Assembly (NCBI GenBank): GCA_964407005.1
Contig: CAYOTW010000003.1
Span: 1 to 32,251 of the forward strand
Source: Candidatus Woesearchaeota archaeon
GTDB taxonomy: Archaea; Nanobdellota; Nanobdellia; Pacearchaeales; GW2011-AR1
Direction: 5' to 3'
Length of the DNA: 32,251 bases
Part shown: positions 3,145 through 15,584 of the stretch, piece by piece
How the letters are laid out: each line of letters opens with the position of its first letter
Position numbering within the stretch: the stretch's first letter is position 1
Made by a program: the position numbers and the translations under genes
The notes under the pieces: model-generated
Databases searched by the model: none
The model's input: only the letters and a program-made list of their open reading frames with translations
Told to the model about the DNA's origin: nothing

Positions 3145-3171
3145 TTTTTATTCTCTAATTCCTAAGTACAA

Positions 3172-3285
3172 GCCATTTGCTCTTGACTATCCTTTCTTCC
3201 ACTTCAAGAGTGAATTCGGGGAGAGCGAGCCATTTGCTCTTGACTATCCTTTCTTCCACTTCAAGAGTGAATGGGGAGAGAAGGA
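3172..3285 (-). repeat. 57-nt tandem duplication (2 copies: 3172-3228 and 3229-3285) carrying a degenerate second copy of the tRNA-Leu 3' end
   Basis: Plus-strand unit gccatttgctcttgactatcctttcttccacttcaagagtgaa occurs twice exactly. Copy 2 ends in the true tRNA 3' end (tggggagagaagga). Copy 1 ends in tcggggagagcga. Each unit holds a 7-bp hairpin, ctcttga-N17-tcaagag. Confidence 0.9.
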
Positions 3286-3356
3286 TTCGAACCCTCGCAG
3301 GCATTTAAACCAACGCGGCCTTAACGCGTCCCGTTTGACCGCTCCGGCATCTCCCC
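3272..3356 (-). tRNA. tRNA-Leu (class II, long variable arm); anticodon reads AAG in the only 5-bp-stem/7-nt-loop fold
   Basis: Minus strand: GGGGAGA TG CCG GAGCGGTCAAA CGG G ACGCG TTAAGGC CGCGT TGGTTTAAATGCCTGC GAGGG TTCGAAT CCTTC TCTCCCC A (85 nt). It lies between rpoD and rpl18e, where a tRNA-Leu is found in other archaea. Confidence 0.85.
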
Positions 3357-5964: not shown

Positions 5965-6267
5965 TTACTTATATTTTTTAACAACCTCAAGTATCTTGTT
6001 GACTTCATCTTGATTTAATGAAACATCTGCAATCACCTTATTAATTTCAACAGCACTTTCAGGCATAAAATCAACAATCTTCACAAGATGTTTTTCCCTT
6101 AATTTAATTAAATCTAATTGAGATAATTCCTCTTTCATTTCCTTAGCTTTTTCTACAGAGATATTTGAAAATTTTTTAATAAAAGATTTAACTTCTTTTT
6201 CTCTATCTGAATCTCCAGCTAGGTCTGCTACCTCTGCTAGTGTTAATGGTTTTGAATCTTTAATCAT
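5965..6267 (-). CDS. rpoF: RNA polymerase subunit F (Rpo4, Rpb4-like)
   Basis: 100-aa helical protein, PLTLAEVADL...KAKEMKEEL...KIVDFMPESAVEINKVI. Conserved L21e-RpoF-DUF655 order. Confidence 0.8.
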   Translation of the reverse strand: MIKDSKPLTLAEVADLAGDSDREKEVKSFIKKFSNISVEKAKEMKEELSQLDLIKLREKHLVKIVDFMPESAVEINKVIADVSLNQDEVNKILEVVKKYK

Positions 6268-6512
6268 TTTAACTCCTTTAGATGAACTGGATGAATTATA
6301 AAGGTTTTTGTTTTGTTTCCAGTTTTAATTTCTACTAATTTATGTGTTCCTCTTGAACCTTTTATAACTCCACTATTTCCTAAAAGCCTATGTGGAAAAC
6401 TTGCTCTAACTCCATATTCTCTTACAACAGACACTCTTGCTCCGTCTTCTAATTTTTTAAAGTACTTACTAAAACCAATCTTTCCTTTTTTTCTTATTCT
6501 TTTGCCTTTCAT
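6264..6512 (-). CDS. rpl21e: 50S ribosomal protein L21e (eL21)
   Basis: GKRIRKKGK...FKKLEDGARVSVV...PHRLLGNSGVIKGSRG. 4-nt overlap with rpoF. Confidence 0.9.
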   Translation of the reverse strand: MKGKRIRKKGKIGFSKYFKKLEDGARVSVVREYGVRASFPHRLLGNSGVIKGSRGTHKLVEIKTGNKTKTFIIHPVHLKELK

Positions 6513-6817
6513 TTTTTTACAATTTTTTCTGTTTCATTTAGTATCTTTTTTAGAACAGCATCAATCAACACAAAAGGATTTCTCCCTTGTGATTCTGAAT
6601 TTGCTCTCTCTCCATCAAATATAAGAAGCGCCTTTATTTCAAAAAGTTTACTATTTCCTTTTGAATGGCTTTTCATATCAATCTTGAGTTCTTCATAGTT
6701 AGCAAGTGTTTTTATTCTTTTTGCATAATTGCCAACAACCTTTCTAACAATAACCATCTCTTGGCTATCTAAATCAAATCCTTCTAACACTATGTTGCCT
6801 CCAAGGTTTTGACTCAT
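6509..6817 (-). CDS. Hypothetical 102-aa protein at the head of the L21e-RpoF operon; sequence pattern loosely resembles the HPF/RaiA (S30AE) fold
   Basis: 4-nt overlap with rpl21e. The layout NIVLEGFDLDSQEMVIVRKVVGNYAKRIKTL ... FEIKALLIFDGERANSES ... PFVLIDAVLKKILNETEK mimics the beta-alpha-beta-beta-beta-alpha layout of RaiA by eye only. Confidence 0.6.
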   Translation of the reverse strand: MSQNLGGNIVLEGFDLDSQEMVIVRKVVGNYAKRIKTLANYEELKIDMKSHSKGNSKLFEIKALLIFDGERANSESQGRNPFVLIDAVLKKILNETEKIVKK

Positions 6818-6858
6818 AAAATATCAACAAAAAATCGCTTTAAAAACCTTTTTACTCT

Positions 6859-7113
6859 TTAAAAGGAAGAAAAGTCCTGTTTTGGAATCGCTAAACTTGG
6901 ATCCTCGGGGCTTAATTCAACAGCAGCCTCTGTATTATGTGTTTCACTTACTTTTCCAAGCTCCATATTCCCCTTTTCTCTTTCTTTTTCCATTCCCGCT
7001 AATATTGCAGAAGACATCTTTGGACCCCAAACTTGATACATACATCCCTGACAAATATCAACTACTGCATCTTGAGAAATCTCAGAATTGCAATAAACAC
7101 ATTTTTTCACCAT
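6859..7113 (-). CDS. Small Zn-ribbon protein (84 aa)
   Basis: CVYC-x13-CQGC near the N-terminus with an acidic tail. AT-rich upstream region. Confidence 0.5.
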   Translation of the reverse strand: MVKKCVYCNSEISQDAVVDICQGCMYQVWGPKMSSAILAGMEKEREKGNMELGKVSETHNTEAAVELSPEDPSLAIPKQDFSSF

Positions 7114-7190: not shown

Positions 7191-8033
7191 ATGAAAAGAG
7201 GATTTATGGCTTTATTTATATCGTTATTGCTATTAGGTTTAGCAAGTGCTACCTGTGAATTAGATGTAACAAAGTTAAATCAGGATCCTTACCCCGCAGT
7301 TCCAGGAGAATATGTCGATATAGTCTTCCAGGTTAAAGGCGTAGAAAACCCTGATTGTGAGGATGTGAAATTTGAGTTAGTAGAAGAATATCCTCTAAAA
7401 CTGGATCCAAATACTTCTCCAGCAGTTTATATAAAAGGGGGAACTTTTGTAAAAGACTTTTCTTCATTTTTAATAGTTCCCTATAAAGTTAGGGTGGATG
7501 AAGACGCTCTTGACGGAAAAAATACATTTAAGGTAAAATATTATTCAAATAACAAAAATGTTTATCAAGAAAAAACATTTAATCTAACTGTTGCAGATGC
7601 AAGAGCAGAGTTTGAAGTATTTATTAGTGAATATGAGGCTGAAACAAATATTCTTTCTTTTGAAATTTTAAATATTGGAGAGCATGACGTTGAGGCTGTT
7701 ACTTTAGAAATAGAACAACAAGAAAATGCCGACGTAAAAGGTTCAAAAAGACAAATTATTGGAGATCTTGATTCAAACGAATACACTTCTGCAGATTTTG
7801 AGATTATTCCTTCTAAAGGGAATATAAGTGTTAATATTTATTACACCGATACAATAAATAAAAGAAGACAAACTGCTGTTTCTGTTCCTTTTGAACCTGC
7901 TTATTTTGAACAAAGAGCATCACAAAAAGTAGAAACGCCCTGGACAACATATATTTTTGCAACATTATTAGTTTTATTAATAATCTATTGGATCTACAGA
8001 AAAAGAAAAAAACGTAAAAAAAGAAAGGGTTGA
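7191..8033 (+). CDS. Secreted, C-terminally anchored S-layer-domain-like protein (COG1361/CARDB-like)
   Basis: Signal peptide MALFISLLLLGLASA, two beta-rich ~110-aa segments, a C-terminal TM helix (YIFATLLVLLIIYWIY) and a KRKKRKKRKG tail. This type of protein commonly accompanies archaeal MacB-like ABC systems. Confidence 0.65.
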   Translation: MKRGFMALFISLLLLGLASATCELDVTKLNQDPYPAVPGEYVDIVFQVKGVENPDCEDVKFELVEEYPLKLDPNTSPAVYIKGGTFVKDFSSFLIVPYKVRVDEDALDGKNTFKVKYYSNNKNVYQEKTFNLTVADARAEFEVFISEYEAETNILSFEILNIGEHDVEAVTLEIEQQENADVKGSKRQIIGDLDSNEYTSADFEIIPSKGNISVNIYYTDTINKRRQTAVSVPFEPAYFEQRASQKVETPWTTYIFATLLVLLIIYWIYRKRKKRKKRKG

Positions 8034-12965: not shown

Positions 12966-13066
12966 GAGGGAGTGCCGGAGCGGTCAAACGGGACGGACTC
13001 AAGATATACGATTAATGAGTAATCCGTTGGCTTATGCCTACAGGGGTTCGAATCCTCTCTCCCTCA
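12966..13066 (+). tRNA. tRNA-Leu(CAA) with an 18-nt intron at the canonical 37/38 site
   Basis: GAGGGAG TG CCG GAGCGGTCAAA CGG G ACGGA CTCAAG[atatacgattaatgagta]A TCCGT TGGCTTATGCCTAC AGGGG TTCGAAT CCTCT CTCCCTC A. CTCA (anticodon loop) pairs with TGAG (intron) between 3-nt bulges, forming a bulge-helix-bulge motif. Confidence 0.88.
13004..13021 (+). other. tRNA intron (canonical position, BHB motif)
   Basis: See the tRNA-Leu(CAA) fold. Mature length is 83 nt after removal. The boundary is ambiguous by 1 nt (a/a). Confidence 0.75.
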
Positions 13067-13157
13067 TTAGCAGGATTCGAATAGTTCGAATCACTTCAAT
13101 CTTGCAAAAGTTGAAGTCCCAGAAATTTTCAATTTCTGAGCTCTCTCCCTCATTAGC
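13067..13157 (+). repeat. tRNA-Leu 3'-end echo unit 1: T-loop look-alikes, the 48-nt two-hairpin module (13093-13140), then an exact copy of the tRNA 3' end plus flank (ctctctccctcattagc, 13141-13157)
   Basis: ttcgaatc|MODULE|ctctctccctca. Deleting the module restores the tRNA sequence 13047-13066 exactly. The 52 nt at 13089-13140 are identical to 14849-14900 and 14930-14981. Confidence 0.9.
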
Positions 13158-13270
13158 CTATCAAAGATAGGCTGGAGACGAATGCTATAAACTCTCTATA
13201 ATTTTATTACAGGGGCGAATAATTCGCTTCGACAACTATCTGTATAAGATGGAGATGCAAATTGTGAGCA

Positions 13271-13433
13271 GAATCCTCTCTCCCTCATTAGCAGGATTCG
13301 AATAGTTCGAATCACTTCAATCTCTATGCAGAACGCAGTGGACAATTTCAAAGGAAAGTTGAGCCACAAGAAAACCTTGGTTTTCTTAGGAGTTGAAGTC
13401 CCAGAAATTTTCAATTTCTGAGCTCTCCCCCTA
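13271..13433 (+). repeat. tRNA-Leu 3'-end echo unit 2: a 53-nt exact copy of 13050-13102, a long variant of the module, and a degenerate tRNA 3' end
   Basis: 13271-13323 equals 13050-13102. The 8-nt tip of hairpin 1 (tgcaaaag) is replaced by 69 nt (13324-13392), which contains a 9-bp hairpin aagaaaacc/ggttttctt. The rest of the module (13393-13422) is identical. It is followed by ctctcccccta. Confidence 0.88.
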
Positions 13434-13454: not shown

Positions 13455-13476
13455 CTAAATTTCTAAAATACTTTAT

Positions 13477-13552
13477 GCCCTTGTAGCTCAGCTTGGATTA
13501 GAGCACTTCCCTCCTAAGGAAGGGGTCGCAGGTTCGAGTCCTGCCGAGGGCG
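13477..13552 (+). tRNA. tRNA-Arg(CCT)
   Basis: GCCCTTG TA GCTC AGCTTGGATTA GAGC A CTTCC CTCCTAA GGAAG GGGTC GCAGG TTCGAGT CCTGC CGAGGGC G. 76 nt with a standard cloverleaf. Confidence 0.9.
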
Positions 13553-13598
13553 TAAAACCTGCTCGCAAGTTCCACATAAAGTGTACCCACAAGGGGCA

Positions 13599-13618
13599 GA
13601 GTCCTGCCGAGGGCGTAA
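13599..13618 (+). repeat. Exact 20-nt echo of the tRNA-Arg 3' end plus 3 nt of flank (gagtcctgccgagggcgtaa equals 13536-13555)
   Basis: Direct repeat separated from the original by 43 nt (13556-13598). The echo starts inside the T-loop (TTC|GAGT). Confidence 0.9.
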
Positions 13619-13619
13619 C

Positions 13620-14699
13620 CTAAACTTTCAAATGCCTAAAAACCGAATTTAAAGAAAATCTCTTAACACTAACAACATCATCTGCCCCCCCAGAATATAA
13701 TAAAATATCTTTTTTATCTATTACCGCTCCAGAGGGAAAAACAACATTTCCAATAAATCCTTCTTTTTCATATTTCTGATCTGGTTTAATAAATGGCTCA
13801 TTTAATGGCGAACGAGCAAGAATATGTTCAGGATTTTTCAAATCCATTAAAACAGCTCCTGCACTATATTTTATCTTTCCTTTTCTTTTACTAACTCCAT
13901 GATAAAAACTCAGCCATCCTTTCTTAGTTTTCATTGGAGGCGTTCCCCCTCCAATCCGCTCATATTCCCAATTAGATTTCTCTCTAGGCTGCATAATACT
14001 TCTTTCTTTTCCCCAATAAATCAAATCTTTAGAATAAGACACCCAAATCGAAGGTTTAGAAAAAACAAAATTCCCCTCAGGCCGATGCAATGCAACATAT
14101 TTTCCTTTTATTTTATTTGGGAACAAAACAACATCCTTATTTTGTTCTCTAAAAATTAATCCAAGCCTCTTCCATTTTTTTAAATCCTTAGATTCAGCAA
14201 GATAAGTAGAAACCCCTTCATTTAAAGAAACACCCACATAAGTCATATAATATTTATCTCCAATCTTTGTAATTCTTGGATCTTCAACCCCATAATCTCC
14301 TTCTCCTTCAACACCAAAAAAACTAGGAAAATCTGCAATTTCTTCAACAGACTCTCCATCCCTTGACAATTTAATCTTTTTAAAATGAGAAAATGTAGTA
14401 AGTCTAAATAACCCCTGTTTAAGATAAACAATTCTTTTGCCTTTTTTTAAAATTCTCATTTTTCCAATCTTTTCATATTTAACATCATACGCATCCTTGG
14501 ACGCAACAACTGGAAACCTCATTGACTGATTTTTATGATTAATTGGGGCCTCTGCAACTCGCGCAAATAAATTAACCCTTCCATCTTTTTTAACGGCAGC
14601 AGGATTTAAAATTCCCTTGACTTCCCAATCAGGAAAACTAGGTTGGATATCATCTGGATTTAAAAGAAGTTTACCCCTCATGTATTTTAAAACAATCAC
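13620..14699 (-). CDS. GH130/DUF377-family glycosidase or glycoside phosphorylase (beta-propeller)
   Basis: GILNPAAV...VEDPRITKIGDKYYMTYVGV...GGGTPP... is characteristic of COG2152/GH130. Confidence 0.8.
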   Translation of the reverse strand: MIVLKYMRGKLLLNPDDIQPSFPDWEVKGILNPAAVKKDGRVNLFARVAEAPINHKNQSMRFPVVASKDAYDVKYEKIGKMRILKKGKRIVYLKQGLFRLTTFSHFKKIKLSRDGESVEEIADFPSFFGVEGEGDYGVEDPRITKIGDKYYMTYVGVSLNEGVSTYLAESKDLKKWKRLGLIFREQNKDVVLFPNKIKGKYVALHRPEGNFVFSKPSIWVSYSKDLIYWGKERSIMQPREKSNWEYERIGGGTPPMKTKKGWLSFYHGVSKRKGKIKYSAGAVLMDLKNPEHILARSPLNEPFIKPDQKYEKEGFIGNVVFPSGAVIDKKDILLYSGGADDVVSVKRFSLNSVFRHLKV

Positions 14700-14760: not shown

Positions 14761-14831
14761 GCGTGGGTAGTTTAGTGGCAGAATCTTTGGCTTCCAACCA
14801 AATGACCCGGGTTCGAATCCCGGCCCGCGCA
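14761..14831 (+). tRNA. tRNA-Gly(TCC)
   Basis: GCGTGGG TA GTTT AGTGGCA GAAT C TTTGG CTTCCAA CCAAA TGAC CCGGG TTCGAAT CCCGG CCCGCGC A. 71 nt. Confidence 0.9.
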
Positions 14832-14993
14832 TTTCTTGGCCGGGATGTAATCACTTCAATCTTGCAAAAGTTGAAGTCCCAGAAATTTTCAATTTCTGAG
14901 CCGGCCCGCGCATTTCTTGGCCGGGATGTAATCACTTCAATCTTGCAAAAGTTGAAGTCCCAGAAATTTTCAATTTCTGAGCCGGCCCGCGCA
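14820..14993 (+). repeat. 81-nt perfect tandem repeat (2 full copies plus a 12-nt third start). Each unit is the tRNA-Gly 3' end ccggcccgcgca, a T-arm look-alike, and the 48-nt two-hairpin module
   Basis: 14820-14900 equals 14901-14981 exactly, and 14982-14993 repeats ccggcccgcgca. Module copies lie at 14853-14900 and 14934-14981. Confidence 0.93.
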
Positions 14994-15038
14994 TACGCAA
15001 TCGAACAAAGTGAGATGCGTGTTGGATTCTAAGCAGAA

Positions 15039-15117
15039 CCGGGTTCGAATACAACAAATTGCTTTGCAATTTGTGTTGCCAAAATTATGAAAGAATTTTT
15101 AGCACCCGGCCCGCGCA
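15039..15117 (+). repeat. Partial tRNA-Gly T-arm/acceptor copy interrupted by a different 54-nt two-hairpin cassette
   Basis: ccgggttcgaat|acaacaaattgctttgcaatttgtgttgccaaaattatgaaagaatttttagca|cccggcccgcgca. Removing 15051-15104 restores tRNA positions 49-73 exactly. Confidence 0.88.
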
Positions 15118-15167
15118 CACTTTTTCAATTAAAGCTTGACGGCACTAAAAATCTTTGATTTTTTTAG

Positions 15168-15179
15168 CCGGCCCGCGCA
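15168..15179 (+). repeat. Fifth and last exact copy of the tRNA-Gly 3' end (ccggcccgcgca)
   Basis: Preceded by a 50-nt insert (15118-15167) that contains the hairpin aaaaatc-ttt-gattttt and ends in ag. It is followed by tac, as is copy 3. Confidence 0.88.
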
Positions 15180-15205: not shown

Positions 15206-15538
15206 TCAACGACCTCTTCTTAATCTTCTAACATCTCTTCTAAACTTTTCCTTAATATTCTGCGGATTTAAATTTCTAGGCAATCCAACACTTCTTCTAG
15301 GAGAACCATTATTCCAAACAGCCCCCGACCTCCTAATAACCCTTCCTCTAGAATCCCTTGTAACCCCATAACTACTTCCCCTATAACCCGGACAATGATT
15401 AATAACCCGTGTCCTTTGAGGAAATTGATAATATCTTGGATTAGAATAGCCTTGATAATAATTAGAAGGCAAACAACCAGCCATAGAAGCCCCTAAGAAA
15501 ATAGAACCAATAAAACCAATTAACCCAGTTTTATTCAT
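15206..15538 (-). CDS. Small Arg-rich putative lipoprotein
   Basis: Preferred start is Met15 (ATG 15538-15536), with a TTTATATA box about 25 nt upstream. Signal plus lipobox-like MNKTGLIGFIGSIFLGASMAGC. Confidence 0.5.
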   Translation of the reverse strand: MNKTGLIGFIGSIFLGASMAGCLPSNYYQGYSNPRYYQFPQRTRVINHCPGYRGSSYGVTRDSRGRVIRRSGAVWNNGSPRRSVGLPRNLNPQNIKEKFRRDVRRLRRGR

Positions 15539-15559
15539 ATAAAAAATAAGTAAAACACC

Positions 15560-15567
15560 TATATAAA
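15560..15567 (-). promoter_or_regulatory. TATA box (TTTATATA on the minus strand) for the lipoprotein gene
   Basis: About 25 nt from the ATG at 15538. Confidence 0.4.
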
Positions 15568-15584
15568 CTTTACTTTGCAAACCC

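Follow-up and report, generated by a model that had tools for sequence, protein, structure and literature searches.

Why is a partial tRNA copy that lies behind an intact tRNA gene split by a short two-hairpin segment? This question is raised by a 32,251-nt stretch of contig CAYOTW010000003.1 from a Candidatus Woesearchaeota archaeon (the window, i.e., the whole stretch of DNA that was analysed), in which a redundant copy of tRNA-Gly(UCC) is interrupted on the forward strand by 54 nt (15051-15104). We confirmed that this 54-nt segment is a real insertion into the T-arm copy, and we assign a probability of about 0.5 to the reading that it is a small non-coding two-hairpin DNA insertion at position 60|61 of the redundant tRNA-Gly copy and one of a class of such cassettes. 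The window is an archaeal contig of 31% GC that carries a 5S rRNA gene and four tRNA genes, one of them with a canonical intron. An exact query with its SecF protein returned no entry; among homologues, SecF has its best outside match, at 67% identity, in an organism named Candidatus Pacearchaeota. The host is therefore a DPANN archaeon without a close database relative, and a direct before-and-after comparison with a close strain is impossible.

Removal of 15051-15104 joins the flanks into GAACCGGGTTCGAATCCCGGCCCGCGCA, which is identical to the tRNA sequence GACCCGGGTTCGAATCCCGGCCCGCGCA at 27 of the 28 positions 46-73. Because the junction of the cassette cannot be slid, it is fixed at 60|61. 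The initial annotation had quoted the sequence at 15039-15117 correctly and had proposed that excision restores tRNA-Gly; this restoration and the junction were upheld, and the copy extends further than described there. To the left of the insert, local alignment revealed a decayed copy of tRNA-Gly positions 27-60 (15022-15050, + strand), comprising the anticodon arm, the variable region, the T-stem 5' strand and the T loop, with an alignment score of 31 compared to a mean of 11.8 and a maximum of 20 for shuffled sequences. To the right, 15105-15117 (+ strand) copies positions 61-73, i.e., the T-stem 3' strand, the acceptor 3' strand and the discriminator. Together, 15022-15050 and 15105-15117 cover tRNA-Gly 27-73, and given the significant match to 27-60, the interrupted object is the decayed 3' two-thirds of a gene and thus more than a T arm.

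The 54-nt cassette (15051-15104, + strand) consists of A, a first hairpin (H1), CC, a second hairpin (H2) and TAGCA. H1 (15052-15078) contains a perfect 9-bp core stem with a TTT loop (15054-15074), whereas H2 (15081-15099) is weak and has six A-T pairs only. The a-H1-cc-H2-ag layout that had been described as shared with a 48-nt module of the same region is weak for the 54-nt cassette with its marginal H2. Folding of the whole cassette does not surpass that of shuffled sequences on the + strand (z = -1.0) and surpasses it modestly on the - strand (z = -2.6). H2 faintly resembles one of the two hairpins of the 48-nt module, its second one, in the following termed the common hairpin (CC-AAAATT..AATTTT-TAG versus CC-CAGAAATT..AATTTCTG-AG), so that the two inserts, initially called unrelated, are not certain to be so. 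By analogy, the 54-nt cassette would best be read as a member of the class on the basis of its position, size, layout and this faint H2 resemblance.

In principle, such an insert could be an archaeal intron, namely a bulge-helix-bulge (BHB) intron that interrupts the T loop of an additional tRNA-Gly gene. Non-canonical T-loop introns do exist in archaea, and tRNA-Leu(CAA) of the window has a canonical intron. While this intron, serving as control, reached 9/10 in a BHB scan, the cassettes scored 7-8, which corresponds to background (7 at best for the 54-nt cassette), and the best BHB sites never coincided with the junctions that restore the T arm. Judging from BHB geometry, a compatible T-loop site would be 59/60. 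In addition, the unit has no D arm or 5' acceptor strand and its anticodon arm is decayed. The BHB scan and the incomplete host tRNA effectively refute a BHB intron, to which we give next to no credence. Several other identities were rejected as well. ARAGORN found no hidden tRNA in the cassette-removed sequence and Rfam none either; a piece of a split or permuted tRNA is at odds with the intact tRNA-Gly directly upstream, with pieces of only 12-13 nt and with the lack of a BHB; and the defining motifs of C/D-box RNAs, hammerheads, Helitron/IS91-like ends and abutted insertion sequence (IS) ends are missing by eye.

The interrupted copy belongs to an array behind the intact tRNA-Gly(UCC) gene (14761-14831, + strand; ARAGORN; Rfam tRNA, 68 bits). 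The last 12 nt of this gene, positions 62-73 (CCGGCCCGCGCA; 14820-14831, + strand), form a repeated core with five exact copies in 360 nt versus 0.04 expected, the four extra ones being located at 14901, 14982, 15106 and 15168. The spacers (S) between them measure 69, 69, 112 and 50 nt, resulting in the layout core-S-core-S-core-S-core-S-core with a core at both ends. Repeat family D1 (100% identity) and the core matches define the first two units as exact tandem repeats of 81 nt (14832-14993, + strand). Each opens with 21 nt of its own (tttcttggccgggatgtaatc), continues with the 48-nt two-hairpin module (14853-14900 and 14934-14981, + strand, assigned by repeat identity), closes with a core copy (14901-14912 and 14982-14993, + strand, exact match), and folds into a closing stem ggccgg/ccggcc that encloses two hairpins (z = -2.8). 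Unit 3 starts with an imperfect hairpin, ACGCAATC..GAGATGCGT (14995-15020, within 14994-15021, + strand), ahead of the interrupted copy. Unit 4 (15118-15179, + strand) is a 50-nt spacer followed by the last core (15168-15179). As noted before, its insert (15118-15167) ends in the hairpin AAAAATC-TTT-GATTTTT (15147-15163) and TTAG; the sequence of this hairpin was also found at the start of locus L019. A fuzzy search of all loci returned no copies of the 54-nt hairpins, the unit-3 hairpin or the unit-4 hairpin. Downstream of the last core follows tacataat, the presumed original flank.

All four tRNA genes of the window are followed by copies of their own 3' ends. Behind tRNA-Leu(CAA) (gene 12966-13066), the trailer at 13067-13152 (+ strand) comprises a palindrome built from T-loop sequence (GATTCGAA-TAG-TTCGAATC, 13074-13092), the 48-nt module (13093-13140) and a copy of positions 62-73 of this tRNA (13141-13152, with identity extending to 13157). 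The T-arm copy is split here at 61|62, reading GTTCGAATC, then the module, then ctctctccctca, which equals 62-73 of that tRNA. The module is 100% identical behind tRNA-Leu and tRNA-Gly, is each time followed by the tRNA's own 62-73, and occurs in four copies behind these two tRNAs. An insertion of the module at 61|62 of a T-arm copy is thereby solid at tRNA-Leu, but in the tRNA-Gly units, for which it had originally been described, the sequence to the left of it, ggccgggatgtaatc, has no significant similarity to the tRNA (score 11 versus a shuffle mean of 10.5). Further downstream (13208-13432, + strand), a second interrupted tRNA-Leu T-arm copy consists of 13208-13215 (positions 46-53), a 55-nt insert and 13271-13287 (positions 57-73), and is followed by a second palindrome and module, in which the H1 loop holds a nested 69-nt insert (13324-13392) and after which a decayed core lies at 13423-13432. 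The trailer of tRNA-Arg(CCU) (gene 13476-13553; trailer 13554-13618, + strand) is made up of a 44-nt spacer and a 19-nt own-end copy (agtcctgccgagggcgtaa, 13600-13618), and that of tRNA-Leu(AAG) (gene 3272-3356; trailer 3171-3271, - strand) of a ~57-nt tandem repeat that re-copies the tRNA end ctctcccc (3218-3225). Two trailers, covering ~2% of the window, contain 9 of its 14 perfect hairpins with a stem of at least 8 bp, almost all with 3-nt loops. Matches of the window to Rfam 15 were limited to the tRNAs and the 5S rRNA, with no family for the trailers.

Is the array ancestral at this locus? Via SecF homologues, we obtained six related loci from about five relatives. The gene order tRNA-Leu, tRNA-Arg, tRNA-Gly, SecF, SecD is the same in one of them (L026), and the other relatives keep this neighbourhood apart from the orientation of the tRNAs, which are inverted in some. 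The tRNA-Gly gene has no downstream copy in any of the six loci; where it faces SecF, it ends 10-90 nt before that gene. The array of the window is therefore a lineage-specific addition. Between array and SecF, the window encodes a 124-amino-acid open reading frame (ORF; 15206-15580, - strand) with a signal-like N terminus and no Pfam match, where relatives mostly show just a short gap. Another gene, encoding a GH130 (beta-1,4-mannooligosaccharide phosphorylase-like) protein (13620-14699, - strand), lies between tRNA-Arg and tRNA-Gly and has no counterpart at this place in the relatives examined, in which the tRNAs are closer together; it was probably captured at the tRNA hot spot. In L147, L148 and L149 compared to L026, tRNA-Leu, -Arg and -Gly stay clustered and vary in order and orientation, which suggests repeated inversions with breakpoints at tRNA genes.

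These inversions and the GH130 gene within the tRNA cluster are among the observations that favour scars of tyrosine-integrase elements, i.e., repeated tandem integration at the 3' part of tRNAs followed by near-complete deletion, with the hairpins as leftover arm sites. Partial copies that run from the anticodon arm or T arm to the tRNA 3' end and stop a few bases beyond it are the classical att signature, and unit 3 covers 27-73. Indeed, direct repeats of tRNA 3' parts that end at or just past the tRNA end were found in the five cores and at other tRNAs, too, and archaeal tRNA fragments left behind by a recombinase-bearing element are documented (PMC3293823). However, many independent near-total deletions would be needed, each leaving 40-110 nt, and neither the 20 window ORFs scanned nor the gene tables of related loci include an integrase gene or fragment beside any array. 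One and the same module also stands beside three different cores, unlike a core-specific attP, and its hairpin is present at 20 sites without an att-like repeat as well as inside an RNase P RNA. We consider integrase scars distinctly unlikely.

Own-3'-end copies are also found behind tRNAs of the relatives, namely behind tRNA-Leu in L026 and L147, behind tRNA-Arg(CCU) in L026 and L021, and in decayed form in L148. The tRNA-Leu trailer of L147 contains two exact 73-nt units, several spacers start with the reverse complement of the T loop, and short hairpins interrupt the T-loop part of the copy in L147 and L026. In the tRNA-Arg(CCU) trailers of L021 and L026, the spacers are homologous, and the copy matches each genome's own tRNA. 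A metagenome scan for a T-loop motif followed by the common hairpin within 20-50 nt matched one contig, L150, an unrelated metagenome contig. Behind its tRNA-Arg(GCG) follow, in this order, the T loop in reverse complement, positions 45-60 of this tRNA copied with one deletion, a module of 53 nt and an exact copy of 61-73. The module has the form A-H1-CC-hairpin-AG, contains the common hairpin and is inserted at 60|61, as is the 54-nt cassette. A hairpin-bearing module at the T-loop/T-stem border hence occurs in copies of three different tRNAs from two organisms. The tRNA-Arg(GCG) gene itself (L150, 252-393) carries an unusually long intron of 66 nt at the canonical position and was missed by default ARAGORN settings.

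Overall, at least six or seven cases of interrupted T-arm copies were identified in four genomes (tRNA-Gly and tRNA-Leu of the window, L150, L147 and L026). All insert positions fall within tRNA positions 53-65, a zone towards which the search is biased, as copies were located by their 3' tail. The initial annotation had argued for a site- or structure-specific process and had named, as a test of it, a search for other interrupted T arms and for interruptions spread over the whole tRNA. The claim withstood this test, in that interrupted T arms recur and none lies outside 53-65, but it has to be widened from one coordinate to a zone and, as shown below, is not specific to tRNAs.

Could the insert instead stand beside a duplicated target? 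In a staggered-cut integration, each unit of spacer and core would stem from one event, in which an enzyme nicks one strand where T loop and T stem meet and the other just beyond the tRNA 3' end, and gap repair duplicates 61/62-73. Casposases and Cas1-Cas2 duplicate a target or repeat beside a palindromic leader in this manner. What looks like an interrupted T arm would then be insert DNA adjoining the duplicated segment, and the array would represent a CRISPR-like record growing at the tRNA. In line with this, arrays begin and end with a core (L147 has the same form), the copy is always that of the local tRNA while inserts are homologous between hosts and tRNAs (window Gly, Leu and L150; L021 versus L026 Arg), and the casposase of A. 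boonei uses a tRNA-Pro T-arm leader with a 15-bp duplication that overlaps the tRNA end (PMC5137440). In contrast, the duplicated lengths vary from 8 to 19 nt (about 8-9, 12, 13, 15, 17 and 19), and the inserts have no terminal inverted repeats, by inspection, and no common ends. Copies of tRNA 27-60 directly left of the cassette in unit 3 and of 45-60 in L150 are unexpected in an imported insert. Moreover, no Cas1 was present among the window ORFs scanned, and none of the 20 non-tRNA loci of the common hairpin has a flanking direct repeat. Staggered-cut integration is, on balance, unlikely.

To define how far the hairpins extend beyond tRNA genes, we followed the common hairpin, the second hairpin of the 48-nt module (CAGAAATTTTCAATTTCTGAG, 21 nt). 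Exact matches to CAGAAATTTTCAATTTCTGAG were found at 20 loci in 14 other DPANN genome bins, all intergenic and in either orientation to the neighbouring genes. Even with long introns allowed for, no tRNA lies near the hairpin in 20 of 21 outside loci, and the underlying process is therefore not tRNA-specific. The bases beside the common hairpin usually pair with each other through context-specific sequences (covariation 0.145 versus 0.084; none of 500 shuffles reached this score), which is what a location within local hairpins would lead one to expect. Eight hairpin loci gave no Rfam match at E<=1. Viral contigs contained neither the common hairpin nor H1 of the 54-nt cassette, and a 9-mer repeat pattern, GCCCGCGCA..GCCCGCGCA, yielded only noise in them, so that the loci it gave (L027-L146) were disregarded. 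With regard to features of IS200/IS605-type elements, the 5' flanks of the insertions differ (GAAT, AAAT, AATC, TGAG), and subterminal hairpins are present.

Some of the loci with the common hairpin show additional features. In L009, an IS6/IS240-type DDE transposase gene (6151-7059, - strand) starts ~110 nt from the hairpin and adjoins a type I restriction-modification fusion gene. Additional hairpins of similar style, including CAGGAATTTTAGATTCCTG, CAGGATTTAACAATCCTG and CAAAAATCAAAGATTTTTG, lie beside the common hairpin in L006 (~1600-1750, - strand) and L009 (~7540-7560), which suggests a family of related hairpins that cluster together. In the window (13120-13138), the common hairpin CAGAAATT-TTC-AATTTCTG resembles the T arm CAGG-TTCAAAT-CCTG with its loop turned into a stem, and TTCAATTTCTG matches TTCAAATCCTG from tRNA-Arg T arms of relatives (e.g. 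L026, ~355-371) at 9 of 11 positions. On these sequence resemblances, the common hairpin may be derived from a tRNA T arm.

A clear indication that two-hairpin cassettes are inserted DNA comes from an RNase P RNA. One CAGAAATTTTCAATTTCTGAG match is located inside the archaeal RNase P RNA of L020 (135.7 bits), in distal P12, as part of a 52-nt block of two hairpins (ATCCA-CAGAAATCTTCGATTTCTG-GGACGC-CAGAAATTTTCAATTTCTG-AG). This block is missing from the RNase P RNAs of L151 and L154, whose flanks align base for base. Presence in L020 and absence in two relatives thus identifies such cassettes as inserted DNA. The L151 and L154 sequences were retrieved via a neighbouring gene, synteny beside the L020 RNase P RNA being only partly kept; L153 lacks an RNase P RNA, and the end of the locus truncates L151. 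In size and layout, the L020 cassette is like the 48- and 54-nt pieces of the window, and its flanks show only GAG|..GAG|. In the RNase P RNA of L154 (3104-3499), ~70 additional nt of another sequence, including the hairpin TAAATTCC-TTT-GGAATTTA, replace what is a short loop in L020 and L151; they represent a second, independent hairpin-rich insertion in an RNase P RNA gene.

A hairpin inside RNase P RNA, which also handles tRNA, may also hint at a functional RNA. The trailers would be transcribed with the tRNA and act as processing or decoy elements that mimic the tRNA end, or provide a protein-binding hairpin shared with RNase P RNA. This would agree with own-3'-end trailers kept behind tRNA-Arg(CCU) in two related genomes, with copies that track each tRNA, and with the exact conservation of the common hairpin across distant lineages next to a covarying extension helix. 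On the other hand, there is no Rfam match, and the hairpin is oriented at random with respect to the genes beside it. Two relatives have RNase P RNAs that lack the hairpin, six related loci have no array behind tRNA-Gly, and units vary in number and content. The stems are perfect, with no G-U pairs or tetraloops, and the 54-nt cassette folds poorly as + strand RNA. A role as functional RNA appears very improbable to us.

Presence or absence of cassettes was also observed among copies of a structured multicopy non-coding element of ~250-350 nt (L002, L003 and L005 in one genome, L010 and L018 in another). This element surrounds the common hairpin, has ends that are complementary over a long range (taaaaatttgaccat .. 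atggtcaaattttta), contains nested hairpin cassettes that vary, produced no match at Rfam gathering thresholds in any of the five loci, and could be a larger host element or an RNA gene of no recognised family. Within this family, one 50-nt two-hairpin cassette sits at the 5' stem/loop border of two different hairpins, depending on the copy; cassettes are present in or absent from hairpin loops, and a hairpin loop of one cassette occurs in both orientations among its copies (TTC versus GAA).

Inverted loops of this kind could arise by local replication errors alone, with a GC-rich T-arm hairpin that stalls replication, subsequent template switching and slippage that would generate inverted and direct T-arm copies as well as new perfect hairpins on the spot, and no mobile element at all. 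Hairpins that are perfect and have 3-nt loops, exact tandem duplications, and reverse-complement T-loop copies directly behind the tRNA (window 13074-13092, L150, L147 and L021) fit this scenario, and template switching is known to create perfect RNA hairpins (PMC8794818). It leaves unexplained, however, the identical 48-nt module at two loci and the identical 21-nt hairpin in 14 genomes and an RNase P RNA, and there is no local template for the 54-nt cassette. As the sole explanation, replication errors are improbable.

Starting from the observed insertion with its junction, the array and its absence in relatives, the recurrence of interrupted copies and the RNase P RNA polymorphism, we favour a two-layered model. 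In the first layer, the T arm and 3' end of tRNA genes would be a hot spot for duplication and insertion at which extra partial copies arise; such duplications would spare the working gene and stack core-insert-core units behind it. In the second layer, cassettes of ~50 nt, with a clear liking for hairpin loops, would be added. The 54-nt segment would accordingly represent a class of ~48-54-nt two-hairpin cassettes of DPANN archaea that are added at the DNA level and survive where they are harmless, that is, in intergenic DNA, at helix tips of structural RNA genes and in spare T-arm copies. We infer that a process able to recognise DNA folded into hairpins would mobilise the cassettes in trans or copy them in, that insertions into the real tRNA would be removed by selection, and that a cassette would have no function for the cell. 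Candidates for the origin of the spare copies are staggered-cut integration, integrase-borne accretion and decay, or template switching. A broader version, which we advance only tentatively, is that the ~50-nt cassettes of DPANN archaea are placed structure-specifically at hairpin loop/stem borders, with the T arm as a favoured site, and that at tRNA genes this process also re-copies the 3' end and thereby builds CRISPR-like core-insert-core arrays behind an intact gene. The chance that the cassettes reflect a new, structure-directed mode of insertion is moderate.

Several observations weigh against this model. A second copy of the 54-nt cassette was found neither within the window nor among 30 related loci and viral contigs, and its mobility is argued only by analogy and from the faint likeness to the common hairpin. 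A Pfam scan of 20 window ORFs identified no integrase, transposase, Cas1 or other mobile-element gene, and only one of the 20 outside loci, L009 with its IS6-type gene, has a transposase near the common hairpin, L009 being the one locus whose neighbouring ORFs were Pfam-scanned. For the cassettes, we detected neither a target-site duplication nor terminal inverted repeats nor a consensus target. Ascertainment accounts for part of the clustering of insertions in the T loop, and the tRNA-Arg(CCU) pattern of L021 and L026 could reflect function, or duplication by the insertion event itself. Finally, the model needs a separate, unproven process for the spare tRNA-end copies, which the initial annotation had not provided.

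Provided that they are mobile, the cassettes would rank with the smallest known units of mobile DNA and would be the first described for Pacearchaeota/Woesearchaeota, whose genomes are so tiny that any intergenic base is unusual. The arrays offer a concrete and testable case for the long-standing question of how archaeal tRNA genes fragment and why the T arm and 3' end attract foreign DNA. With its palindromic leader, a repeat-insert-repeat array is reminiscent of how targets are organised in casposon integration and CRISPR adaptation; a link, if real, would bear on the origin of these systems. On the practical side, trailers can mislead tRNA and non-coding RNA annotation of DPANN genomes, and RNase P RNA helices that normally guide alignment become longer through insertions.

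How do the cassettes compare to known systems? In the literature searched, we found no description of such cassettes in this host group or of a ~50-nt two-hairpin unit, nor of cassettes in hairpin loops of tRNA-gene copies or RNase P RNA or of a coupling to tRNA-3'-end arrays. Similar to non-canonical T-loop introns, the inserts are tens of bases long and their removal restores a T arm, but they have no BHB, are positioned at 60|61 or 61|62 and interrupt a copy that is not a tRNA. With casposon and CRISPR integration they share a T-arm palindrome beside a duplicated segment and repeat-insert-repeat arrays that can grow in tandem (PMC5137440). While casposons are kilobases in length and have terminal inverted repeats, a Cas1 gene and a fixed duplication of 14-15 bp, the inserts described here comprise 41-112 nt, with no inverted ends, a variable duplicated length and no Cas1 seen. 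As in archaeal att-site remnants, partial copies end at the tRNA 3' end, and rearrangements and foreign genes flank the tRNAs (PMC3293823); unlike these, there is no integrase or element body, and tiny units share hairpin modules across tRNAs.

Closer parallels are provided by short mobile or repeated palindromes. As in miniature inverted-repeat transposable elements, near-identical copies in varied contexts were found for the 48-nt module and for subfamilies in other genomes, though not for the 54-nt cassette, and presence/absence at orthologous sites was found for P12 of L020, the loops of the L002 family and the tRNA-Gly array. Repetitive extragenic palindromic (REP) sequences, bacterial interspersed mosaic elements (BIMEs) and Rickettsia palindromic elements resemble the cassettes as short extragenic palindromes that are clustered, occur in either orientation and can at times persist within genes whose products are structured. 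Some IS elements in turn insert into REP hairpins. In contrast to REP/BIME sequences, the cassettes have no GTAG-type tag, and no gene for a REP-associated tyrosine transposase (RAYT) or a TnpA-like protein was seen; compared to the single 20-40-nt palindromes of the REP and Rickettsia type, they are ~50-nt two-hairpin units linked to tRNA ends. To our knowledge, GC clusters of mitochondria, REP-type elements and Rickettsia palindromic elements are all without known machinery of their own. Yeast mitochondrial GC clusters, e.g. GC42, are small palindromic mobile DNAs whose machinery is not known (PMC4478555). Like these and the GC-rich palindromes that flank tRNA genes in Neurospora mitochondria, the cassettes are non-coding hairpins of ~40-50 nt in an AT-rich compact genome, and, like the mitochondrial GC clusters, they are multicopy, polymorphic in presence and absence, prone to merging and nesting, often located beside tRNA genes and of no known enzyme (PMC4478555). 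Whereas GC clusters are GC-rich and duplicate an AG target, the cassettes are AT-rich and have no consistent duplication; they are archaeal rather than organellar, reside in hairpin loops and are coupled to copies of the tRNA 3' end.

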